Of a stretch of 64,000 bases of DNA, positions 1 through 54,811 are shown piece after piece. Source of the DNA: Deltaproteobacteria bacterium RIFCSPHIGHO2_02_FULL_44_16 (GTDB lineage: Bacteria; UBA10199; 2-02-FULL-44-16). Position numbers and translations under genes: made by a program. The number at the start of each line of letters is the position of its first letter. Within the stretch, counting starts at the first letter, position 1. Location of the stretch: NCBI GenBank assembly GCA_001798185.1, contig MGRM01000005.1, positions 19,925-83,924 of the forward strand, written 5' to 3'. The notes under the pieces are model-generated. The model was not told the origin of the DNA, did not search any database, and saw only the letters and a program-made list of their open reading frames with translations.

Positions 1-948
1 CAAGCTGCTTATCAAAAGAGAAATCTTGCGGCGTCATCCCTGCGAAAGCAGGGATCTCATGCTGATCATGAGATTCCCGCTTTCGCGGGAATGACTTTAC
101 AATACGATATGCTGCGCAAACTGGAACTCTCGTTGAAAAACTTCCAAACGTTGAAAAAATATTGTGATAAAAAGAAGATCACGTTTTTAGTCACACCTTT
201 TGATGAACTTTCGGCAGATCAGTTAGATCCTCTGGTTGAGCAATTTAAAATTTCTTCTGGTGATTGTACGAATATCCCTTTGCTCAAACATATTGCGAGC
301 AAACGGAAGCCCATTATTCTCTCCACAGGCATGACAACACTTGAAGAGGTAAGAAGAGCGGTTGATATCTTTTCAAAAAAACAATTTACGCTTTTGCATT
401 GCACGACCAACTATCCATGCCCGTTTCCAGAAGTGAATCTGGGTGCAATGAAAACACTCCGAGATGAGTTTCAGTGTCCCGTTGGACTTTCGGATCATAC
501 CGAGGGGATCGAAGTGGCAATAGCAGCTGCAGCCCTTGGTGCATCGGTGATCGAAAAACATTTTACGCTTGATCGAACACTTCCAGGTCCTGACCACAAA
601 GCGTCTCTGGAACCAAATGAGTTAATATCCATGGTGCGAGCGATTCGCAACATTGAACAGGCGCTCGGAGATGGAGTGAAAAAGCCGCAAATTTCGGAAG
701 TGGAGACAGCAAAAGTCGCCAGGCGCAGTCTTGTCTTTTCAAAAAATCTTCCGAAAGGGACCGTGCTTCATGAGACTCACTTTCTGGCAAAGCGTCCAGG
801 AACAGGTCTCTCTCCAGAAAAAATTGAACAGATTGTGGGTCGAACATTAAAAAAAGCTGTTGTGAAAGATGAACTTGTCAGTTTTGAATCGCTAGAAACC
901 AATTTTTTGGATATTGAGAACGCTCACCCTGAGCTTGTCGAAGGGTGA
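1..948 (+). CDS. neuB: N-acylneuraminate / nonulosonic acid synthase (NeuB/PseI/LegI family). It is 5'-partial: the frame is open to the window start, and the repeat element at 33-96 lies inside the open frame.
   Basis: Motifs ILSTGM, LLHCTTNYP, LSDHTEGI and a C-terminal SAF (antifreeze-like) domain are present. The ORF aligns from about residue 85 of NeuB-type enzymes. Frame 1 has no stop between positions 1 and 90. The ATG at 91 is supplied by the repeat element. Confidence 0.75.
   Translation, partial: QAAYQKRNLAASSLRKQGSHADHEIPAFAGMTLQYDMLRKLELSLKNFQTLKKYCDKKKITFLVTPFDELSADQLDPLVEQFKISSGDCTNIPLLKHIASKRKPIILSTGMTTLEEVRRAVDIFSKKQFTLLHCTTNYPCPFPEVNLGAMKTLRDEFQCPVGLSDHTEGIEVAIAAAALGASVIEKHFTLDRTLPGPDHKASLEPNELISMVRAIRNIEQALGDGVKKPQISEVETAKVARRSLVFSKNLPKGTVLHETHFLAKRPGTGLSPEKIEQIVGRTLKKAVVKDELVSFESLETNFLDIENAHPELVEG
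33..96. repeat. Double-hairpin palindromic repeat element, family 1, full copy.
   Basis: The sequence is gtcatccctgc-gaaa-gcagggat...gagattcccgc-tttc-gcgggaatgac. It is highly similar to 26765-26823, and 47426-47452 is a half-copy. Confidence 0.7.
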
Positions 949-22202: not shown

Positions 22203-24030
22203 AAAAATACTTCGTTCTCTCAAACGTTCTTTTGTGACGGTCTCACGATTTCTCCGATTTGGAGATAGTCATAAGGTTGTTTTTTTTGAAACGCTCTCTT
22301 CCGAAAATAAAACGTTGCCTTCACGAAGAGATGTTCTGCGCTGGATTTCTCCCATTCTCAAAGAGATGGGGAGAACATTTGTGCGAGCTTACCGAGTTGG
22401 ACTTGGAGAAGCGCATACGCTTCATCCCGATCCGCTTTCCACAGCAGGAGGGGAGAGTTATGGAAAATGTCGAATCGGTTTTACGTACAAAAACGCCTTT
22501 TCGCTTTCCCATGCTCCTCAAGGAAGTGTGTCGCTGAATCTTTCAGATGAGGCTGCCGAAGGAATATACTTTTGGGTCGGGAAAAAATTTATTGAAACCG
22601 GTGATGGACTTTTGGATCTTTTTCTTGAAGGAAAAGATTCCACAAAAATTTTTTCAAAAAAATTAAATGCGCTTCATCACGCATGGGATCTTTTTTATTT
22701 TCCTTTAGCCCAAAAGAGCGGCGAATATAAATTCACGTGGAGTACACAAGGGGAGAAGAAGGATCTTTTACTGACTCCCCCTCTGATCAAACGAAAACAG
22801 GAACGAACTGTTCTTCTTCTCATCGCTGATGCTGTGCGACCTCAAGACATCGGGCTTTATTCAGGAGCTGTTCATACACCGATGCTCGATGCCTATTTTT
22901 CATCAGGAGTTCTTTTTCAAAATAGTTTTGCTCAAAGTAATTGGACGCTTCCGGCCTTTGCTTCGATTGCCACTTCTCACTATGCATCAGAACATGGCGT
23001 GGTCGATCCTGATCGCTATTCGCGTCCCATGGATCGACACGTTCCAACCTTAGGGGAAGTGATGCGCGCTCACGGATTTTATACCTATGGCTCTGTATCT
23101 CATTTTCGCAGTAACCAAGCTTATGGGCATCATCGTGGTTTTGAACACTTTGACTATGCAAGTACGATGCAAGAAAAACCGGGAACCACAGGAGTGGCAG
23201 GACAGAATAATATGCATCGTCAACTTCGGGAACTTTGTGCGTATGTTGACAATCTTCGCGGAGTGAATTTTTTTGGAATGATCCACTTTTTTGATACGCA
23301 TTTCCCCTATTTTTATAATCCCTATCAGCTCAACCAGCATGATCTTCTTTTTCAAAATTCTCTGGAATACTCTGTGCGAAAACCATTCACTCAGCAATTT
23401 ACGGAGGAAGAGTATCGGTATATGCTTCATCAGTATTATACGCGTCTTGCAGAGTTGGATGCTGCACTCGCGCAGCTCTTTTATGTTCTTCGAAACAGAG
23501 AGAACGTCACCGTTCTTTTTATGTCCGATCATGGATATTGTTTTGAGAAATCCCTTGGGCATGATTTGTCCTCTGATGAGATTGCAACTCCTCTTTTCAT
23601 AAGCTCCACTGAATTCAAGCTCGAAGGGGGGAAACATCAGCGCGTGACGCAGTCTTCGGTGGATATCCTGCCGACATTGACAACCCTTTTTGGGATTCAT
23701 GATGTAACTGCGCGCGCGGGAACCTCTCTGTTTGATCGCTCAGGAAAAGTTCTCCAGAAAGAAGTGGCAGTGTCAGAGTTGATCTATCATGAACTCTATC
23801 AAGTACGTCTTATTGGAAAAAAAGGAGCAACACTTTTGTTTGAAACCAAACGTTCTCGTAAGAGTGGAACGATTGAAGTTGACCAACTTTTTATCAAGGA
23901 CAATCGTTTTGACTCCCCCTCAGAAACATCTCTTGAAATGTTCCTTGCCTCTGTAGAAAGTTCAAAACTTTTTCCTTCACTCAAAAAGAAAATGTGTGAA
24001 CTGATTCGTTCTGGAGAGAACTTGCAATGA
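22189..24030 (+). CDS. Sulfatase-like (alkaline-phosphatase-superfamily) protein, paralog 1.
   Basis: LLLIADAVRPQDIGLYSG is the sulfatase N-terminal metal-site motif. At the CxPxR position the protein has TLPAF, that is Thr in place of Cys and no Arg. No transmembrane segment is predicted. Confidence 0.65.
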   Translation: MKKFKKILRSLKRSFVTVSRFLRFGDSHKVVFFETLSSENKTLPSRRDVLRWISPILKEMGRTFVRAYRVGLGEAHTLHPDPLSTAGGESYGKCRIGFTYKNAFSLSHAPQGSVSLNLSDEAAEGIYFWVGKKFIETGDGLLDLFLEGKDSTKIFSKKLNALHHAWDLFYFPLAQKSGEYKFTWSTQGEKKDLLLTPPLIKRKQERTVLLLIADAVRPQDIGLYSGAVHTPMLDAYFSSGVLFQNSFAQSNWTLPAFASIATSHYASEHGVVDPDRYSRPMDRHVPTLGEVMRAHGFYTYGSVSHFRSNQAYGHHRGFEHFDYASTMQEKPGTTGVAGQNNMHRQLRELCAYVDNLRGVNFFGMIHFFDTHFPYFYNPYQLNQHDLLFQNSLEYSVRKPFTQQFTEEEYRYMLHQYYTRLAELDAALAQLFYVLRNRENVTVLFMSDHGYCFEKSLGHDLSSDEIATPLFISSTEFKLEGGKHQRVTQSSVDILPTLTTLFGIHDVTARAGTSLFDRSGKVLQKEVAVSELIYHELYQVRLIGKKGATLLFETKRSRKSGTIEVDQLFIKDNRFDSPSETSLEMFLASVESSKLFPSLKKKMCELIRSGENLQ

Positions 24031-26764: not shown

Positions 26765-26823
26765 GTCATCCCCGCTTACGCGGGGATCTCATGAGATTCC
26801 CGCTTCCTGCATGCGGGAATGAC
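26765..26823. repeat. Double-hairpin palindromic repeat element, family 1, full copy.
   Basis: The sequence is gtcatccccgc-ttac-gcggggat ctcatg agattcccgc-ttcctgcat-gcgggaatgac. It lies intergenic between the dprE1-like and dprE2-like genes. Its ATG (26791) creates a spurious upstream ORF start. Confidence 0.7.
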
Positions 26824-27576: not shown

Positions 27577-29780
27577 AAAATTTTTTTCTCCTTCTCTTCG
27601 TTCTGATTTCTGCCTGCAAAATAAGTTGCGCCGCCAATTTTACAGATGAATCTCTTTCTGAAAATAGCCAATCTTCCAGCCAACCTTCTGAGGTCGATGG
27701 GCAAAAATGTTTTTATTATCGTGATCAGGACCTTGATAGGTATGGCGATCCCCTGTCTGTGCTTGAAAATTGTTTTCCTCCTTCGGGTTATGTTGAAAAT
27801 GCGGATGACTGTGACGATAATGATGCTCAAGTGTTTCCAAAGCTTTGGTATTTAGATGCTGATGGCGATAGCTATGGAAATCCGTCACAAACGCTCAGAA
27901 GTTGTAATCCTCCCTTAAAGTATGTGCAAAATGCTACGGACTGCGATGATGCCGATGCTGCTATATCACCCAAAACTATTTGGTACGCTGATAAAGATGC
28001 GGATGGATTTCTGGGAAGAACGATTTCGTGCGCAAAACCAGAATCTTTTGTCCCTCAACTTGTTTTCATTCCAGAAGAGAGTATTGACTGTGATGATACG
28101 AAGAATGCAGTTTATCCGGGAGCGTTTGAATATATCGATCACATTGACCAAAACTGTGACGGAAAAATAAGAACTCTTTATTTAAAAGATATTTCTCCTG
28201 ACCATGTTTTTCATGGTGCTGAAAGAGGAGATAATACAGGTTTTGATCTTGCAGCAGGAGATTTTGATGGAGATGGATACGATGATATGTTGATCAGCGC
28301 TGTCTTTGCGGGATCTGACCTGAAAGGAAAAATTTATCTCATCTATGGAAAGCCTTCTCTGATACTTGATCAAGCTGATGCAACCCTTGTCGGAGAATTT
28401 TCAAATGATCATGCCGGTCAGTTTCTCTCCACATCTGGCGATGTGAATGCCGATGGTTGTGTCGATTTTCTGATTGGTGTTCCTGAATATTCAGATACCA
28501 TTCTGCAACGAGGGAAAACGTATCTCATTTATGGAAGTGGAGCCCGTTGTGCTTTTCCCCAACGATTAACAGGAACGAATAGTCTGACGTCTGTGGGCGC
28601 CGTCGGTGGAATTTCGGGCGCTACTTTTCTTGGAGTCAACAGAGAAGATTACAGCGGAGCAGATATTGCATCAGCGGGAGATATTGATGGAGATGGAAAG
28701 GACGATCTCCTTATTGGCGCGTATGGAGCAGATGCAACGGCGAATGCTTCCGGAAAGGTCTATCTTGTTTATGGAAAAGCGTTAAACGATGTGACCTGTA
28801 TGGATGGAACAAATCCCCATCAGATGAATCTGTCGATCCTGGAAACAGCGGCTGATGCACATTGTGGCCATGAGATTCTTGGCGAGGGAGGAGGAAGTCT
28901 CTTTGGAATTACATTAGCAGGAGTAGGGGATGTGAATCAAAATGGAACCGATGATCTCTTTATCGGTGCTTATGGTTTTAATCCGGATCCAAATCAGACC
29001 CAACCCGCGTACCAATATCAAGGAAAAGCTTACCTTTTTGATTTTGGAATCCTCGGAACGCCTGCAGGACAAAATATTCCGAGACGAATTTTTGCGAGCA
29101 CCGATACGAAGGCTTATTTTGGTGGATTTGCTTTGACTGGCTTAGATGATTGGCGTTCCTGTGCGAGTACTATTTCTGCTTTAGGAGATACGGATGGGGA
29201 CAGCGCCAATGACTTTATGCTGGGATGCTATGCGCTTGATAATCGAACCATTCAGATGCCGGATTCAGGCGGTGTGTATGTGATGTATGGTGGTGAGTAC
29301 ACGGGTGATATAGCGTCCGATGCTCTTTTTCTTCTTGGCACAGAGGATAATGGACAGCTTGCCCAGGAAAATCTTGCCTCTGGAGGAAATGTCAATCGTG
29401 ATGCTTTCGCTGATATTCTCATTGGTGCTTCGAGAGTGAACGGAGGGACATGGCCTGGAAAGTATGAAGCGGGAAAAACCTATTTGATCCTTGGCCGGAG
29501 CCGTGTTGATTTCGCAGCCGCGTATACGAATCAATTTTTAGATAATGTTGATCTCACCTTCAGAGAAGTCGGAGGGTTCGAATTTCTTGGGGAAGAGAGA
29601 TATGACGAAAGTGGTGCTGGTTTGGCAAGCGGTGATTTTGATGGCGATGGAGATACAGATATTCTCATCGGTGCTCCTGGGGATGAAGTGAATAAACTGT
29701 ATAAACATCAGAATTTTGAATCTCAGGCAAATCCACCGCGACCTGGAAAGGTTTATTTTGTTGAATCCAGGTATGAATAA
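27573..29780 (+). CDS. FG-GAP repeat lipoprotein with N-terminal cysteine-containing CDD repeats.
   Basis: A lipobox (LISAC) is followed by three DCDDxDAxxxP repeats. Multiple FG-GAP/Ca-binding DxDGDG motifs follow (DFDGDGYDDMLIS, DIDGDGKDDLLIGA, DFDGDGDTDILIGAPG). It overlaps the dprE2-like gene in an ATGA junction. Confidence 0.7.
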   Translation: MKNFFLLLFVLISACKISCAANFTDESLSENSQSSSQPSEVDGQKCFYYRDQDLDRYGDPLSVLENCFPPSGYVENADDCDDNDAQVFPKLWYLDADGDSYGNPSQTLRSCNPPLKYVQNATDCDDADAAISPKTIWYADKDADGFLGRTISCAKPESFVPQLVFIPEESIDCDDTKNAVYPGAFEYIDHIDQNCDGKIRTLYLKDISPDHVFHGAERGDNTGFDLAAGDFDGDGYDDMLISAVFAGSDLKGKIYLIYGKPSLILDQADATLVGEFSNDHAGQFLSTSGDVNADGCVDFLIGVPEYSDTILQRGKTYLIYGSGARCAFPQRLTGTNSLTSVGAVGGISGATFLGVNREDYSGADIASAGDIDGDGKDDLLIGAYGADATANASGKVYLVYGKALNDVTCMDGTNPHQMNLSILETAADAHCGHEILGEGGGSLFGITLAGVGDVNQNGTDDLFIGAYGFNPDPNQTQPAYQYQGKAYLFDFGILGTPAGQNIPRRIFASTDTKAYFGGFALTGLDDWRSCASTISALGDTDGDSANDFMLGCYALDNRTIQMPDSGGVYVMYGGEYTGDIASDALFLLGTEDNGQLAQENLASGGNVNRDAFADILIGASRVNGGTWPGKYEAGKTYLILGRSRVDFAAAYTNQFLDNVDLTFREVGGFEFLGEERYDESGAGLASGDFDGDGDTDILIGAPGDEVNKLYKHQNFESQANPPRPGKVYFVESRYE

Positions 29781-34510: not shown

Positions 34511-36427
34511 ATGTATTATTTCTTTCAGAAAAAATGGAGATGGTTCAAAAAGCACCTTATCGGTTGTTATCGATTACTCCGATATGGATCTTTCGAAAAA
34601 GTTGCATTTTTTGAGATCACGACTCCTGAAAATATTTTTGGACCTTCATTTTTTGACTTTATTGCTTGTATCCCCCGTGTTCTTCAAGAGATGGCATGGA
34701 CCTTGGTTCGGACATATCAAACAACATTTTGGGAATCCTGCGTTCTGAAGCCCGATCATCTCTCTCGTCCTTTTGAAGGAGATTATGGAAAGTTTCGAGT
34801 GAGAAGCATTTATAGGAATGCTTTTTCCCTTTTTCACTCACGTTGCGGGAAAATACATCTCGATCTTGCAAATGATTCGGATGCGGAAGGTTTTTATTTT
34901 TCTATTGGAAAACAATTTATCACAATGAAAAAAGGCGTTTTGGAAATTTTTCTTGAAAGCGATGGAAATTCAACCAAAATATTTTCGAAACCCTTACAAA
35001 TGCTTCGTCATAATTGGAACTGGTTCTATTTTTCTTTGGATACTTTGAAGAACATCTCCAAGCACTCTCATTATATTGGCGCAAAATATGATTTTAGGTG
35101 GAATCTTAGCGAGAAAAAGAGAAAGGTATTTATTTCTACGCTTATAATCAAAAGAAAAAAACAAGAAAGAATTTTCCTTCTTCTTGTTGCTGATGCTGTG
35201 CGTCCATCAGATATAGGACTGTATGGTCAATCCTCTTTGACCCCTCATCTCGATACATTTTTTTCTTCGGGTGCAGTTTTCCGAAATAGTTTTGCGCAAA
35301 GCAATTGGACTCTTCCTGTCTTTGCCTCTCTAGCAACGTCTCAATATGCTTCACAGCACGGGGTTGTTGATCCAGACATCTACTTGCGATGTCTTCCACC
35401 TCATGTTCCGACATTAGCGGAACTTATGCGTGCAAATGGTTTTTTTACATATGCTTCTGTGGCACACCATCGTTGCAATCATTCCATTGGTCACCATCGA
35501 GGTTATGAATATTTTGATTATTCGCAAACAGTAGAGGTGAAATATAACTCCATGGGAATCCCTGGAAAAAATAATATGTACCGGCAACTTCAAAACCTTT
35601 GTGCGCGATTGGATAATTTCCGTGGCGCTGATTTTTTTGGAATGGTTCATTTTTTTGATACACATATTCCTTATCTTTATAATCGTAATGAACTTAATAC
35701 ACGTCATCTTCTTTTTCAGAAATCAGTGGACCAATGTGTCATGGAATCCCTTTCTCATAAATTGAAAGGAGAAGAATATCACTATCTTCTTTATAGATAT
35801 CAGATGCGATTAGCTGAGCTGGATCAAGCTCTTCTCAAAGTATTTAGGATCCTTAAAAAAAGAGAGAAAGTAACTGTCATTTTTATGTCGGATCATGGTT
35901 TTTCTTTTGAAAATCCGCTTGCTTGGGATTTGTCTTTTGATAAAATCGAAACTCCCTTTTTAATCCGCTCCAATGAGTTTGATCTTCAACGAGGAATACA
36001 GAATCGTATGGTTGAGTCTTCGCTTGATGTTCTTCCAACAATAACAAACCTTTATAATATCCAAGATTCTGTTCTGCGATCTGGAACTCCTTTATTTGAT
36101 CATGTGGGGAAAATAATATTAAAAGAATATGCAATTTCAGAGCACGTCTATGACGACATTTATCAGTTGCGTCTCATCGGAAAAGAAAAACTCTCCCTTC
36201 TTTTTGAAACAAGCCGACATCGAAAGACAGGATCAATTGATATTGATGGAATGAGGTTGAAAAACTGTTGTTATCAAGGACTTTCACCGAGTATCGGGAA
36301 CCATCTCTTTTTAAGTTTTCTTGAAAAAGCCAAGCTTCCATTTTCTTTAAAAAAGAAATTACAACAACTGATCAGTCAAAATGCACTTCAAGATCAACCT
36401 GAAGTTGCAAGTGAAGGAGCTCTATGA
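34511..36427 (+). CDS. Sulfatase-like (alkaline-phosphatase-superfamily) protein, paralog 2.
   Basis: It is collinear with paralog 1 (LLLVADAVRPSDIGLYGQ, SNWTLPVFASLATSQYASQHGVVDPD, FFGMVHFFDTHIPY). The start was moved to the ATG at 34511. Confidence 0.65.
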   Translation: MYYFFQKKWRWFKKHLIGCYRLLRYGSFEKVAFFEITTPENIFGPSFFDFIACIPRVLQEMAWTLVRTYQTTFWESCVLKPDHLSRPFEGDYGKFRVRSIYRNAFSLFHSRCGKIHLDLANDSDAEGFYFSIGKQFITMKKGVLEIFLESDGNSTKIFSKPLQMLRHNWNWFYFSLDTLKNISKHSHYIGAKYDFRWNLSEKKRKVFISTLIIKRKKQERIFLLLVADAVRPSDIGLYGQSSLTPHLDTFFSSGAVFRNSFAQSNWTLPVFASLATSQYASQHGVVDPDIYLRCLPPHVPTLAELMRANGFFTYASVAHHRCNHSIGHHRGYEYFDYSQTVEVKYNSMGIPGKNNMYRQLQNLCARLDNFRGADFFGMVHFFDTHIPYLYNRNELNTRHLLFQKSVDQCVMESLSHKLKGEEYHYLLYRYQMRLAELDQALLKVFRILKKREKVTVIFMSDHGFSFENPLAWDLSFDKIETPFLIRSNEFDLQRGIQNRMVESSLDVLPTITNLYNIQDSVLRSGTPLFDHVGKIILKEYAISEHVYDDIYQLRLIGKEKLSLLFETSRHRKTGSIDIDGMRLKNCCYQGLSPSIGNHLFLSFLEKAKLPFSLKKKLQQLISQNALQDQPEVASEGAL

Positions 36428-45436: not shown

Positions 45437-46183
45437 ATGAACGATAACATTTCCCAACCTGTTATTTTGATTACCGGAGCAAGCGGCGGCATTGGAGCTG
45501 GTGTTGCTGATTCTTTATTTGAACGTGGATATACACGGATTGCATGTCAGCATCGTTCGTCTTCGGATCATCTTGGACGCATTATCCAAAAATATACTTT
45601 GGATCCCAAACAACATTTATTTCAAGGTGATCTGACAAATGAAGCGTATGTTGAGGAACTCGAAAAAAAAATAAACGAACAGTTTGGTGCCGTCGATGTG
45701 CTCATTAATTTAGCAGGAGGCTCAACAAACGGGCTTTCCTGGAAGCTATCGCTCCAAGAATTTCACGATGTTATGGCGATGAATCTTACGACTACTTTTC
45801 TGACGTGCCGACAATTTATTCCTCGCATGCGAGAAAAAGGATTTGGAAGAATTATAAACACCTCCTCTGTTGTTGCTTTCAAAGGGACAACAGGAGCGGC
45901 GCATTACAGCGCAGCAAAAGCAGCCGTTGTGGGATTTACCAAATCGCTTTCTTTGGAACTCGCGAATAAAAACATCACTGCGAATACGCTTGCTCTGGGA
46001 TATTTTGATGTTGGCATTATCAATCACGTTCCTGTTGAGATGCAGCGGAAGATCCAGCAAGACATTCCCTTGAAAAGATTTGGTACGGTCAAAGAGATTG
46101 GTCGGCTTGTTGAATATCTCTTAAACGATGAGTCTGCATATATTACCGGTCAAATCTTTCATATTAATGGTGGGCTGTATTGA
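45437..46183 (+). CDS. SDR family oxidoreductase (FabG-like 3-oxoacyl reductase type).
   Basis: ITGASGGIG and the YSAAKAAV catalytic YxxxK motif are present. Confidence 0.75.
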   Translation: MNDNISQPVILITGASGGIGAGVADSLFERGYTRIACQHRSSSDHLGRIIQKYTLDPKQHLFQGDLTNEAYVEELEKKINEQFGAVDVLINLAGGSTNGLSWKLSLQEFHDVMAMNLTTTFLTCRQFIPRMREKGFGRIINTSSVVAFKGTTGAAHYSAAKAAVVGFTKSLSLELANKNITANTLALGYFDVGIINHVPVEMQRKIQQDIPLKRFGTVKEIGRLVEYLLNDESAYITGQIFHINGGLY

Positions 46184-46326
46184 AAAGTCCGCAGGAGGCG
46201 ATTGTCGAGCGGCGTCTTCAGACACTGGAAACGAAGCCTCAATATCCAGTAGGCTGAAGCACAGGCAAAAATCCGGCGTGTGAGGATTTTTGCCGTAGTG
46301 AGACAACGCCTCCGAGAGACTTTTCA
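46184..46326. repeat. Structured repeat of about 143 bp with terminal inverted repeats, family 2, copy A.
   Basis: About 90% identical to the reverse complement of 52546-52688. The ends aaaagtc..ggaggcg / cgcctcc..gactttt are inverted repeats. An internal hairpin is ggcaaaaatcc-N9-ggatttttgcc. Confidence 0.75.
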
Positions 46327-47425: not shown

Positions 47426-47452
47426 TCGTCATTCCCGCGCAGGCGGGAACAG
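47426..47452. repeat. Half-copy of the family 1 palindromic repeat.
   Basis: gtcattcccgc-gcag-gcgggaa matches the right-arm hairpin of family 1. It lies in the 38-bp gap between convergent genes. Confidence 0.5.
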
Positions 47453-49781: not shown

Positions 49782-50794
49782 AACTTCTTGTGACAGGTGG
49801 TCTCGGATTTATCGGTTCAAACTTCATTCGATATCAGCTGGAACACGATCCGAGCTGTTCGATCGTGAACTTAGATTGCCAGACCTATTCGGGAAATCCG
49901 GAAAACTTGCGCGACATTGAAAACAATCCGCGATATCGATGGGTCAAAGGAGATATTGTTGATGCTGAGGTTGTAGGGCCCCTCATGCAGGAGGCAGAGT
50001 GTGTGGTACATTTTGCGGCAGAGTCTCATGTCGATCGCTCTATTCTTGACTCATCTGCCTTTCTTCGGACCAATGTTCAAGGGACGCACGTTCTGCTTGA
50101 GGCAGCGAAAAAATATGGCATCGAACTTTTTGTGCATGTGAGCACTGATGAAGTGTATGGTTCTGTTGAAAAAGGGGAGTCGGTTGAGAGTGATCCTTTG
50201 GAGCCTAACAGTCCCTATGCCGCCTCAAAAGCTGCGTCAGATCTTCTCGTACGCTCCTATCATGTCACGCATAAGCTTCCGACGATTATTACCAGATGTT
50301 CAAATAATTTTGGTCCCTATCAATTTCCCGAAAAAGCGCTTCCACTTTTAATGACGAACGCGCTCGAAGAAAAACCATTTCCTCTTTATGGGAGCGGAGA
50401 AAATGTTCGCGATTGGATCTATGTCTTAGATCATGCCAAGGCCATTTCGTTTTTGATTCGCAAAGGAAATGTGGGAGAAATTTATAATATTGGCGGTACG
50501 TATTCTGCGCAAAATAAAATTCTCTTCACGAAAATTTTGGAACTGATGCAAAAACCAGCTTCGCTGCTTCACATCGTTGCAGATCGACCGGGCCATGATA
50601 AACGTTATGCACTGAACTGCGATAAGTTGAAACGTCTTGGCTGGAGTCCGGAAACACCTTTTGAAGCAGCATTAGAGCAAACGATCAATTGGTATTGCGA
50701 AAGAACTGATTGGTGGCAACCCTTGAAATATGGGACTGATTTTCAGCATTACTACACATCGCAATATGCTTCCCGCGCGATGAAAACCTCATGA
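49778..50794 (+). CDS. rfbB: dTDP-glucose 4,6-dehydratase.
   Basis: MKLLVTGGLGFIGSNF, the YSASKAASD catalytic motif and HVSTDEVYG are present. Confidence 0.9.
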   Translation: MKLLVTGGLGFIGSNFIRYQLEHDPSCSIVNLDCQTYSGNPENLRDIENNPRYRWVKGDIVDAEVVGPLMQEAECVVHFAAESHVDRSILDSSAFLRTNVQGTHVLLEAAKKYGIELFVHVSTDEVYGSVEKGESVESDPLEPNSPYAASKAASDLLVRSYHVTHKLPTIITRCSNNFGPYQFPEKALPLLMTNALEEKPFPLYGSGENVRDWIYVLDHAKAISFLIRKGNVGEIYNIGGTYSAQNKILFTKILELMQKPASLLHIVADRPGHDKRYALNCDKLKRLGWSPETPFEAALEQTINWYCERTDWWQPLKYGTDFQHYYTSQYASRAMKTS

Positions 50795-51657
50795 AGATTC
50801 TTCTTCTGGGTGCTTCAGGACAGCTTGGGTTTGATCTCTGTCGTTTGTTTCAGAACAACGAATGTTTCGATGTTTCCCCTCTAACACGAACAGATCTTGA
50901 TCTCATGCATATTGCCCGCATACCGGAGGTCTTGCATCAATATCAGTTCGATATTCTCATCAACTGTACTGCGTATAATCGTGTCGATGATGCACAATCT
51001 CATTCGCAACTTGCATATGCGATCAATACCTATGCTGTGGAAGCACTTGCCAAATACTGTGCAGAAGTTCGAGCAAAGTTCGTCCACGTCAGTTCCGATT
51101 TTGTTTTTAACGGTGAGAAAACTTCTCCTTATACAGAGACAGATCTGGTTATGCCGCTGTCTGTCTATGGAACTTCAAAGCTCTTGGGAGAACTCTTTGC
51201 GCAGCAATCACATAACGATGTGCTGGTGATTCGTACGGCGTCTCTTTTTGGCGAAGTCGGTTCCTCGGGAAAAGGGGGGAACTGCGTGGAAGCTTTTGTC
51301 CACAAGGCTCGTCGCGAAGAAGAGCTGAGAGTCATTAACGATATCACGATGTCGCCGACGTCGACGGCAGATCTTGCGCAGGCCATTATTTCTCTCTTGC
51401 AACAGAAAGCTCCTTCTGGAATTTATCATGTGGTCAATGACGGAGTGGTGACGTGGTATGCATTTGCTTCTGAAATCATGAACCAAATGCGTCTTTCGGC
51501 ACGTATGACTCCGGTTTCACATGCTGAGTTTCCGATGAAGGCTTTGCGGCCTCGGTATAGTGTTCTTGACACCGCAAAGACGGCCAATGTCATTGGAAAG
51601 ATGCCAACATGGCAAGAAGCGCTGCATCGTTATCTTCAGCAGAAGAGGTATATATAA
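50791..51657 (+). CDS. rfbD: dTDP-4-dehydrorhamnose reductase.
   Basis: [13 protein letters not shown] and the YGTSKLLGE motif are present with RmlD length. Confidence 0.85.
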
Positions 51658-52532
51658 TGAAGGGGATTATACTCGCAGGTGGAGCAGGTTCTCGTTTGTA
51701 TCCTCTCACTCATGTGGTGAGTAAGCAGCTTTTACCGGTGTATGATAAACCAATGATTTATTATCCTCTTTCATCGTTGATGCTCGCAGGGATTCAAGAC
51801 ATTCTGATTATTTCAACGCCGCAGGATCTTCCGCTTTATCAGCGGCTGCTTCAAGATGGACAACAGTGGGGCATTCGTTTGAGCTATGCGGAACAACCTT
51901 TTCCCGGTGGTCTTGCTCAAGCTTTTCTGATTGGGAAATCTTTTATCGGTTCGGATGCCTGTGCTCTCGTGCTCGGCGATAACATTTTTTTCGGAGAGGG
52001 TTTTACAAAGCAGCTTGAGCGAGCCGCGCTTAAAAAGAAGGGGGCAACGGTTTTTGGATATTGGGTAAACGACCCCGAACGATACGGCGTTGCTGTTTTT
52101 GATAAGACTGGAAAAGTCATTGAAATTGAGGAAAAGCCGGCACGACCAAAGTCGCATTATGCAATCACGGGTCTCTATTTTTACGACCATCGTGTAGTCG
52201 ATGTCGCATCACGCTTACAACCCTCTGCACGCGGGGAACTCGAGATTACAGATGTGAATAATTTTTATCTTCGCGAACAGCAATTAGAAGTGGAAAAACT
52301 CGGTCGAGGGATTGCGTGGCTTGATACGGGCACACATGATTCTCTCGTGGAAGCTTCAAATTTTATTGCGACGATTGAAAAACGCCAAGGACTCAAAGTG
52401 GCGTGTCTTGAAGAGATCGCTTGGAGAAAGAGATGGATTTCGAAAGAAGGTCTCGAAGGCCTCATCGAAAGAATGTCGCACAATACGTATCGAGAATATT
52501 TAGTGACGATGCTTGAACATGAAGCAGAATGA
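51657..52532 (+). CDS. rfbA: Glucose-1-phosphate thymidylyltransferase.
   Basis: [18 protein letters not shown]...[18 protein letters not shown] is the RmlA signature. Confidence 0.9.
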
Positions 52533-52545
52533 TGACATTGTTGAA

Positions 52546-52688
52546 AAAAGTCTCTCGGAGGCCGCTTCTCGCTACGGCAAAAATCCTCACATGCCGGATT
52601 TTTGCCTGCGCTTCAGCCTGCCGTATATTGAGGCTTCGTTTCCGGCGTCTGAAGACGCCGCTCGAATTCGGCCTCCTGCGGCCTTTTT
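52546..52688. repeat. Structured repeat of about 143 bp with terminal inverted repeats, family 2, copy B, in inverted orientation.
   Basis: Its reverse complement aligns with 46184-46326 at about 90% identity, including the ggcaaaaatcc..ggatttttgcc hairpin. Confidence 0.75.
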
Positions 52689-52715
52689 TCAATGCACAAC
52701 AAGGAGAATGTTATG

Positions 52716-53828
52716 AACGAGCAACGAAAGGTTCCATTTTTTAATTATCAAGGAATCTTTGAACATCGACGCGAAGAATATTTGAAAACCATCGAAGATG
52801 TTCTTTCACGAGGCGCTTTTATTTTGCAGCGTGATGGAAAAGAATTTGAAACAAACGTTGCTGAATATTTACAGGTGAAACATGCGATTGGTGTTGCGAA
52901 TTGCACCGATGGCTTAACGCTTGCACTGCAGGCGGTAGGGGTAAAAGCGGGCGATGAAGTGATTTTCCCTTCGCATACTTTTGTGGCAACTGCAGCATCG
53001 GCAAAAGCCATAGGCGCTGTTCCAGTTCCGGTTGATTGTGGCAAAGATCATCTGATCGATCCGCAATCGATCAAAAAAGCAATCACCTCTAAAACAAAAG
53101 TGATTATGCCGGTGCAACTGAACGGTCGTACTTCTCGTATGGACGAAATCCAGGCGATTGCAGATCAGCATCGTCTTCTGGTCGTCGAAGATGCTGCTCA
53201 GGCTTTTGGTTCTACCTATAAAGGTCGACATGCAGGGACATTTGGGCTTGCGGCAGCGTTTAGTTTTTATCCTGCAAAAACACTCGGCTGTTTTGGTGAT
53301 GGTGGTATTGTCGTGACCAATGATGACCATGTGGCAGAGACGGTGACGCTGCTGCGCGATCATGGTCGCAATAAAGAAGGGGAGATTGTGCAGTGGGGAA
53401 TGAATTCGCGACTCGATAATCTTCAAGCTGCTCTTTTGAATGTGAATTTAAAATATTATAAAGAGTCGATCCACCGACGTCGGGAAATTGCAGCTTGTTA
53501 TCACGAAGAACTTGGAGGACTTTCTGAACTGACACTTCCACCTGCTCCAGGAAGTGAGAAAGATCACTACGATATTTTTCAAAATTATGAGATCGAAGCA
53601 GATCGTCGCGACGATCTGCGCTCTTTTTTGCAATCGAAAGGTGTGGGAACGTTGATTCAGTGGGGTGGAAAAGCCGTTCATCAACTCAAAGCGCTTCAGT
53701 TCACGCAGAAACTTCCGGCGACGGATCGTCTTTTTGAGCGGGCGCTGATGCTTCCCATGCATGCGGTTCTCTCCAATGAAGATGTTCACTATGTCTGTCA
53801 GCAGGTGAAAGCGTTTTATCGTGCTTGA
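52716..53828 (+). CDS. DegT/DnrJ/EryC1/StrS family sugar aminotransferase (PLP-dependent).
   Basis: The fold-type I sugar aminotransferase blocks are present (ANCTDGLTLAL, FGSTYKGRHAGTFG, FSFYPAKTLG). The start was moved to the ATG at 52716 (MNEQRK). Confidence 0.85.
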   Translation, partial: NEQRKVPFFNYQGIFEHRREEYLKTIEDVLSRGAFILQRDGKEFETNVAEYLQVKHAIGVANCTDGLTLALQAVGVKAGDEVIFPSHTFVATAASAKAIGAVPVPVDCGKDHLIDPQSIKKAITSKTKVIMPVQLNGRTSRMDEIQAIADQHRLLVVEDAAQAFGSTYKGRHAGTFGLAAAFSFYPAKTLGCFGDGGIVVTNDDHVAETVTLLRDHGRNKEGEIVQWGMNSRLDNLQAALLNVNLKYYKESIHRRREIAACYHEELGGLSELTLPPAPGSEKDHYDIFQNYEIEADRRDDLRSFLQSKGVGTLIQWGGKAVHQLKALQFTQKLPATDRLFERALMLPMHAVLSNEDVHYVCQQVKAFYRA

Positions 53829-53858
53829 TTAATACGTGACAAAATGGTCAAAAACAAA

Positions 53859-53993
53859 TTAGAACTTATTTCAAAACTGATAAATCTTCGGGTGGAGTCG
53901 ACGGTGGATCCCAGGGGTGCCCCGCGTCAGCGGGGAGGTGGAACGCCGGAGGGGACGGGCCCCGTAACAGTGAGTGTTTTGAAATAAGTTCTA
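53859..53993. ncRNA. Element bounded by an 18-bp perfect inverted repeat that encloses a 98-bp GC-rich core. It is a candidate structured RNA/leader or a MITE.
   Basis: tagaacttatttcaaaac (53860-53877) is the exact reverse complement of gttttgaaataagttcta (53976-53993). The core holds a gccccgc-gtca-gcggggag hairpin. The right arm ends in the ATG of the transketolase gene. Confidence 0.4.
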
Positions 53994-54811
53994 TGATCAC
54001 AAAAATGACAACCGAACAACTTGCGAAAAATATTCGATGTCATGCACTTCGTATGACGAGTCGTGGCCAGAGCTCACATATTGCATCGGTTTTTTCGATG
54101 ACCGACTTGCTTGCCGTTCTTTACGGTGAGATTTTGAATGTCGATCCGCAACTACCGAGCTGGGATGGTCGCGATCGTTTTATTCTCAGTAAAGGCCATG
54201 CTGGTGCCGGTATTTATGCGGCTCTGGCAGAGCGTGGTTTTTTCCCCAAAGAACGTCTGGAGACCCATTATCAAGATGGTTCCAACCTTTGTGGACATGT
54301 GACGACCAAAGGGATCCCGGGAGTCGATTTTTCCACAGGATCTCTGGGCCACGGACTCTCTGTTGCGACTGGTATGGCGTATGGCGCAAAACTCGATGGC
54401 AAAACGCATCGGGTTTTTGCATTGCTCAGTGACGGAGAATGTGACGAAGGTTCAAATTGGGAAGCCATTCTTTTTGCATCACATGCAAAACTCGATAATT
54501 TAATGGTTCTTGTTGACTACAATAAAATTCAAAGCCTCGCGAGTGTTGCGGAGACTCTCGCCCTTGAACCCTTTGCACAGAAGTGGAAAAGTTTTGGATG
54601 GAGTGTGCACGAAATTGACGGTCATGATCATCACGATATTCTCACCACCTGTCGCCGTCTCCCTTTTGAAACGAACAAGCCGAGTTGCATCATTGCGCAT
54701 ACGGTCAAAGGGAAAGGGGTTTCATTTATGGAAAATACAGTGCTGTGGCATTATCGCTCAGCGCAGGGCGAAGAATATAAAAAAGCACTCGAGGAGTTAG
54801 AGCGAACATGA
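53993..54811 (+). CDS. Transketolase, N-terminal (TPP-binding) subunit.
   Basis: GHAGAGIYAALAERG, GSLGHGLSVATGMAYG and the LLSDGECDEGSNWEA TPP motif are present. Confidence 0.85.
   Translation: MITKMTTEQLAKNIRCHALRMTSRGQSSHIASVFSMTDLLAVLYGEILNVDPQLPSWDGRDRFILSKGHAGAGIYAALAERGFFPKERLETHYQDGSNLCGHVTTKGIPGVDFSTGSLGHGLSVATGMAYGAKLDGKTHRVFALLSDGECDEGSNWEAILFASHAKLDNLMVLVDYNKIQSLASVAETLALEPFAQKWKSFGWSVHEIDGHDHHDILTTCRRLPFETNKPSCIIAHTVKGKGVSFMENTVLWHYRSAQGEEYKKALEELERT

Follow-up and report, generated by a model that had tools for sequence, protein, structure and literature searches.

The 64-kb stretch of DNA analysed here (the window) includes a polysaccharide-biosynthesis operon in which genes for RmlD, RmlA and a DegT-type aminotransferase are followed by genes for the N-subunit of transketolase (TktN), the C-subunit (TktC), a sugar transferase and a CapD-like protein. 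The spacer between the aminotransferase gene and TktN contains a 134-bp element (Table 1), of which the last base (53993) is the A of the ATG codon that opens the 272-aa TktN reading frame called by NCBI. Other gene callers start TktN at an in-frame ATG (54005), yielding a product of 268 aa, and this start aligns exactly with that of a homologue (MTTEQLAK versus MDTLQLAK). The initial annotation had the right arm of the element running into the transketolase ATG, which is correct for the sequence at 53993, but because the start at 54005 matches the homologue, it may not describe the codon that is used. A Shine-Dalgarno motif is absent at both starts, whereas about 60% of the neighbouring genes have one. 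An exact look-up of the 272-aa protein found no record; look-up by the 268-aa protein recovered loci that are all 100% identical and therefore carry no covariation information. The element and its spacer are identical in at least eight metagenome or metagenome-assembled genome (MAG) contigs from several groundwater metagenomes. The locus was placed in MAG GCA_001799065.1 (contig MGSB01000035.1), and the sister MAGs that carry it are those of Deltaproteobacteria bacterium RIFCSPLOWO2_02_FULL_44_10 and RIFCSPHIGHO2_02_FULL_44_16, from the Rifle aquifer.

Other repeats are present in the window. The RmlA-DegT spacer of the same operon is occupied by one copy (52546-52687, plus strand) of another MITE-like repeat, 142 nt long and unrelated to the element, the other copy of which lies at 46183-46324 on the minus strand; the two are 87-89% identical, their terminal repeats are imperfect (TTGAAAAAAG.C....GGAGGCCG), and NCBI calls a 65-aa open reading frame over this repeat (L084 1429-1626). 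Two segments 12,364 bp apart (22794-23024 and 35158-35388) are 74-76% identical and probably represent paralogous genes, and five FG-GAP-like coding repeats lie within a single gene at 28252-29674.

Table 1. Positions of the element, its parts, its neighbours, its other copies and the repeats compared with it. Positions without a contig label are those of the window.
Feature	Position	Strand	Basis or remark
RmlD	50791-51657		
RmlA	51609-52532		
DegT-type aminotransferase	52692-53828		
A-rich spacer, 31 nt, outside the repeat	53829-53859	+	from DegT stop codon (53826-53828) to element
Whole element, 134 bp	53860-53993	+ (G-rich strand; operon sense strand)	covariance model R1
Left terminal inverted repeat, TAGAACTTATTTCAAAAC	53860-53877	+	inverted-repeat search
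Core, 98 nt, G-rich, 66% GC, stems P2-P5 of the rod	53878-53975	+	alignment A3 and RNAalifold
Apical hairpin, gCCCCGC-GTCA-GCGGGGag	53919-53937	+	CCCCGC-GTCA-GCGGGG part at 53920-53935
Right terminal inverted repeat, GTTTTGAAATAAGTTCTA	53976-53993	+	inverted-repeat search
Transketolase N-subunit (TktN)	53993-54811	+	candidate starts ATG 53993 and ATG 54005
Copy of the element	L078 4284-4420		identical to the L076 copy
Copy of the element	L078 2002-2146		
Copy of the element	L077 1754-1890	-	
Variants of the TerC-GDH copy	L098 5394-5525; L097 9766-9910		
IS5-family insertion sequence, same 18-nt terminal repeat	L013 1-78		Eisenbacteria
IS5-family insertion sequence, same 18-nt terminal repeat	L014 3716-4599		Methanohalarchaeum thermophilum (archaeon)
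IS5-family insertion sequence, same 18-nt terminal repeat	L057 1149-2047		Methanohalarchaeum thermophilum
MITE-like repeats	L009 1175-1359; L039 4710-4919; L048 4273-4439		Gammaproteobacteria MAG
Further MITE-like elements	L055 1492-1634; L059 about 588-780		Gammaproteobacteria MAGs
REP-like GC hairpins	36-92; 26768-26815; 47431-47450; L077 230-277; L087 8103-8159		

The two arms of the element are complementary at 18/18 positions with 98 nt between them, and the arm sequence has only these two matches in the 64-kb window with up to three mismatches permitted, compared with a mean of 0.12 matches in dinucleotide shuffles, none of which contained two. By base counts, the core has 65 G+C in 98 nt, compared with 38-47% GC in the window. 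A perfect 18-bp inverted repeat around a 98-bp core containing the gccccgc-gtca-gcggggag hairpin is therefore present as first described; the core is GC-rich as claimed, although the figure given for it (about 70%) was slightly high. The window copy scores 148 bits with the covariance model (R1, model positions 1-135). The calculation of minimum free energy that the initial annotation had proposed bears out a stable structure on both strands: the plus strand folds into a single long rod of -55.3 kcal/mol (z = -3.7), which is the one dominant fold, and the minus strand reaches -48.9 kcal/mol (z = -5.0). A TA dinucleotide at each terminus of the window copy (53860-53861 and 53992-53993) may be a target duplication, but being palindromic, it is indistinguishable from one extra base pair of the repeat, and in older copies a target duplication is not clear in the flanks. 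A search for outward promoters found only a weak TTGAAA-16-AAAAAT match, with its predicted transcription start inside the coding sequence. A conserved small open reading frame over the element was ruled out because the frame is broken in the L077 copy, and no spurious reading-frame calls over the other copies turned up in a protein database that was queried with pseudo-peptides joined from every open frame.

The element is not confined to this operon. A search of metagenome contigs with a 22-mer from the core identified contigs L076, L077 and L078, with three additional loci besides that of the window, two of them 2.3 kb apart on L078. The four distinct copies known are 134-145 bp long and lie between unrelated neighbours: TerC and glutamate dehydrogenase (GDH), an M48-like gene and RpiB, HU and gyrA, and DegT and TktN. 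The other copies have unrelated flanks. The terminal repeats are perfect (18/18) in the window and L077 copies and imperfect in the two L078 copies (L078a and L078b). The initial annotation had raised the prospect of many identical copies scattered through the genome; further copies do exist at unrelated loci, but they have diverged, being 74-87% identical to the window copy, and include no recent exact duplicate. These counts are lower bounds, as the contig collection is incomplete: the metagenome scan returned neither the window nor contig L005, both of which hold the 22-mer. Searches with R1 found no copy in the rest of the window and about 18 kb of extra flank, none beyond the two known in 21 kb around the GDH locus, and searches of viral contigs (with two motifs), plasmids and phages gave no true matches. 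The possibility that the L076-L078 contigs derive from another organism was ruled out by the locus-tag prefixes of their NCBI proteins (A3I05_ and A3C46_), which tie them to the two MAGs of the window; these contigs also co-occur with the window locus in the same samples, and both regions share a family of REP-like hairpins. Assemblies break at the element (contigs L099-L102 begin or end inside copies), which is the behaviour of repeats. An apparent shorter variant of the element in scaffold L086 proved to be an N-filled gap at the right arm of the window copy (about 2967-2976). The gyrA gene next to the L077 copy (L077 1914-5816) contains an intein (Intein_splicing domain) and encodes a product of 1300 aa.

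Relatives with the same gene order have no such element. Two distant relatives (L090 and L093), in which TktN is 72% identical, keep the order DegT-TktN-TktC-sugar transferase. The DegT protein ends at the same residue in them as in the window, and the DegT stop codon either overlaps the TktN start (TAATG) or lies 4 nt from it. The orthologous junctions thus have neither spacer nor element, as the initial annotation had allowed that they might, which identifies the element as an insertion and the ancestral state as a tightly coupled DegT-TktN gene pair. The lineage of the window has gained a spacer of 164-176 nt, of which 134 nt are the element; without the element and one TA, the spacer would be about 44 nt, A-rich. 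Among the sampled populations, all carry the element, and no strain-level empty site was found. R1 detected no element in L090-L095 or L103.

The terminal repeats of the element are those of insertion sequences. A scan for the 18-mer arm in GTDB genomes, one per species and not returning the genome of the window itself, gave 69 single-arm matches, most of them without similarity beyond 18-24 nt. In a member of the Anaerolineales (L040), the 18-mer and an inverted 17/18 copy of it bound an 853-bp element (1444-2296) that encodes DUF4096 and DDE_Tnp_1 proteins, which match the NCBIfam model NF033580 (transpos_IS5_3) at 140 bits (cutoff 110). This and the other insertion sequences of the IS5 family with the same 18-nt ends (L013, L014 and L057) are about 850-900 bp long. 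The same 18-mer also begins MITE-like elements in Gammaproteobacteria: a repeat of 167-210 bp (L009, L039 and L048) has the exact 18-mer at its start, ...AAGTTCTA at its end and a core unrelated to that of the element, and the gammaproteobacterial elements as a whole start exactly with TAGAACTTATTTCAAAAC, end in ...AGTTCTA, are 143-210 bp long and have unrelated cores. L059 apparently comprises two such units in tandem with a TA in common. TA stands at both ends of the insertion sequence copies and of the gammaproteobacterial elements. Thus, the same 18-nt ends occur in Chloroflexi, Eisenbacteria, Gammaproteobacteria and a methanogenic archaeon, across phyla and domains.

These observations are best explained if the element is a copy of a non-coding, palindromic, dispersed MITE with terminal inverted repeats of the IS5 family (transpos_IS5_3 type), to which a probability of about 0.7 is assigned. 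A MITE is about 50-500 bp long, contains no transposase gene and shares its terminal inverted repeats with an autonomous insertion sequence. The element has the size, the terminal repeats, the dispersed copies, the lack of coding capacity and the absence from orthologous sites, and its ends match insertion sequences, which come from organisms other than its host. Bacterial MITEs of 100-400 bp with terminal inverted repeats of 4-30 bp, a terminal TA and stable stem-loops have been described (PMC5896051), and some share terminal inverted repeats with IS5-family elements and nothing else (PMC4596501). The suggestion that a mobile MITE landed at the start codon is therefore favoured by the dispersed copies, the insertion sequence ends and the empty junctions of relatives. 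A transposase of this family probably mobilised the element in trans. Against this reading, a tblastn search with the L040 transposase found no IS5-family transposase in about 130 kb of the host genome.

The insertion would have occurred at a TA, where a short spacer rich in A separated the DegT-type aminotransferase gene from TktN. The element would then be co-transcribed with the operon and form a stable rod (about -55 kcal/mol), placing a stable 18-bp stem at ATG 53993 or 11 nt before ATG 54005. Such a rod would uncouple the translation of TktN from that of DegT, probably lowering TktN translation, and could offer a site of double-stranded (RNase III-type) processing or of stability in the mRNA. 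To judge from the sequence, any hindrance of TktN translation initiation by the stem may reasonably be inferred to be a side effect of the insertion.

The fold of the copies raises the question of a role at the RNA level. The four copies have a common rod of 40 pairs, with 95.6% of the cells paired (43-51% in slid-partner controls) and seven pairs changed on both sides, values that were reached in 0/500 shuffles, although the set consists of four sequences from one genome, and related sequences can beat all shuffles without real structure. The outer halves of the arms vary among copies yet stay complementary (for example, GAGAACTTATTTCAAAAT/ATTTTGAAATAAGTTCTC in L077), and in L078b the apical hairpin has been swapped for a longer one (CCCCACCCAC-GATTTAT-GGGTGGGG), while the core blocks that form the apical internal loops (GGATCCCAGGGG and GGAGGTGGAACG) are invariant in the four copies. 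There are eight G·U pairs on the G-rich strand versus two A·C, and in three of the four copies the fold of the G-rich strand is the more stable one, by 6-12 kcal/mol. This strand is the sense strand in all three copies that lie inside co-directional gene runs; the fourth (L077) is in a divergent promoter region where orientation is uninterpretable and sense transcription doubtful. Measured from the upstream stop codon, three copies begin after 0, 5 and 31 nt, and two of the four (those of RpiB and TktN) have 9-12 nt between their right arm and the next start codon, with an AAGGA Shine-Dalgarno motif in this interval at RpiB (L078 4420-4433). The pattern of conservation resembles selection on RNA, and compensatory, strand-biased conservation would not be expected of a transposon that is simply decaying neutrally. 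The compensatory changes, the strand bias of G·U pairs and the sense orientation make it possible, though unproven, that the element acts as RNA in the processing, stability or translation of the mRNA.

Two forms of such a role may be considered. It is unlikely that the element is a domesticated or functional RNA module, perhaps a former MITE, retained in operon mRNAs for its effect on the transcript, where it may be an RNase III/E processing site, a 3' stabiliser of the upstream cistron or a means of setting the ratio of translation between cistrons. Rather improbable is the more specific proposal of a sense-oriented, structure-constrained RNA module that was spread by IS5-type ends and co-opted in operons, where, from its place right behind stop codons and shortly ahead of start codons, it would serve in mRNA processing or stability or would uncouple translation and so set the relative output of adjacent cistrons, its invariant apical loops (GGAUCCCAGGGG and GGAGGUGGAACG, the second of which includes a perfect Shine-Dalgarno-like GGAGGUG) binding a protein or the ribosome. 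Long palindromes can stay complementary through upkeep at the level of DNA, and population variants of the TerC-GDH copy (L078b) argue against strong constraint: in one, 13 nt of the otherwise invariant GGAGGTGGAACG block are deleted between two GGAGGTG direct repeats, and the other shows G>T within GGGGAGG.

The other explanations concern the origin of the element or its relation to transketolase. The initial annotation had offered a cis-regulatory leader as one of its two choices, but a dedicated riboswitch, thermosensor or attenuator for the split transketolase and the genes downstream of it is barely credible. The position directly 5' of TktN, the inclusion of the first ATG in the stem and the missing Shine-Dalgarno motif of TktN would suit a leader. 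Against this, the same element lies upstream of the unrelated GDH, RpiB and HU genes, relatives with the same operon (L090 and L093) have no leader, and the ends are insertion sequence ends. The sequence lacks the features of a riboswitch, having no association with a single gene family, no conservation before orthologues (L090-L095 and L103) and no alternative fold serving as an expression platform, and neither a T-run 3' of the stem nor an intrinsic terminator was found in it. The proposed comparison with known cis-regulatory RNAs (Rfam 15) brought up nothing that reached the gathering score anywhere in the window, and nothing even at E<=10 in positions 53780-54060. Unrelated contexts and empty junctions thus contradict the leader, and the locus is not to be pursued as a transketolase riboswitch or thermosensor. 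Also very unlikely is a REP or REPIN-type element spread by a RAYT (IS200/IS605-like TnpA), with IS5-like ends that are coincidental or secondarily acquired. REPIN hairpins remain complementary in evolution, the genome has REP-like GC hairpins in inverted pairs, and one of these (26769-26785) agrees with the apical hairpin of the element (CCCCGCGTCAGCGGGGA) at all but one of 17 positions, but the arms are AT-rich, not palindromic in themselves and not REP-like, they equal the IS5-family terminal repeat at 18/18 positions, and no RAYT gene was noticed in the DNA that was read. The REP-like hairpins, of the form GTCAT(T/C)CC(C/T)GC-N4-GC(A/G)GG(A/G)AT and mostly in inverted pairs, are probably the "family 1" repeat of the initial annotation.

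As a probable IS5-ended MITE, the element has counterparts in several bacteria. The Correia elements (CREE/NEMIS) of Neisseria are palindromic repeats of 100-155 bp with terminal inverted repeats and TA ends, adjacent to genes, and their hairpin RNA is co-transcribed, cut by RNase III and able to alter the expression of neighbours; their sequence and terminal repeats differ from those of the element, and they number hundreds of copies in Neisseria compared with the four known here. The bcr1 repeat of the Bacillus cereus group is a transcribed, MITE-like repeat of about 155 bp with an RNA fold kept by compensatory changes; its sequence is unrelated, and the TTTAT target duplication belongs to bcr1. 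REP/BIME and REPIN sequences are intergenic GC-rich hairpins in operons that can stabilise upstream mRNA and of which the hairpin is maintained, but they are moved by RAYT and built of REP palindromes, whereas the element has the AT-rich end of an IS5-family DDE transposon. QMITE1 and QMITE2 of Coxiella burnetii first drew attention as small RNAs with a high degree of structure; there are about 50 copies, located beside or inside genes and with long palindromic folds, and their transcription has been shown (PMC5896051). The sequence of the QMITEs is unrelated to that of the element. The BrickBuilt, MITEPgRS/MITE464 and MITE239/700 elements of Porphyromonas gingivalis and the ATR element of Neisseria (with ISNme1-type ends) are MITEs with ends of the IS5 family (PMC4596501). 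These are likewise short and non-coding, with an unrelated interior and terminal repeats that equal or nearly equal those of IS5-family insertion sequences, and the ISNme1 end (GAGACCTTTGCAAAA) resembles by eye the L077 arm (GAGAACTTATTTCAAAA). Their cores are not homologous to that of the element, which unlike theirs is a GC-rich rod with compensatory changes, and their parent insertion sequences are in the same genome, whereas the insertion sequences that match the element were seen in other phyla (L040, L013, L014 and L057). By analogy, the element appears to work like the Correia elements, the QMITEs, bcr1 and the IS5-ended MITEs, and it has its core sequence in common with none of them.

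The element would thus represent a previously undescribed family of MITEs in an uncultured groundwater deltaproteobacterium, and a clean case of a palindrome that inserted between two translationally coupled genes and parted them with no inactivation. Only two of its aspects are unusual: compensatory conservation with a strand bias, and a terminal repeat that occurs widely, across phyla and in an archaeon. If the strand-biased compensatory conservation holds true on the full set of copies, the family could be a small model for how mobile hairpins turn into elements of mRNA.
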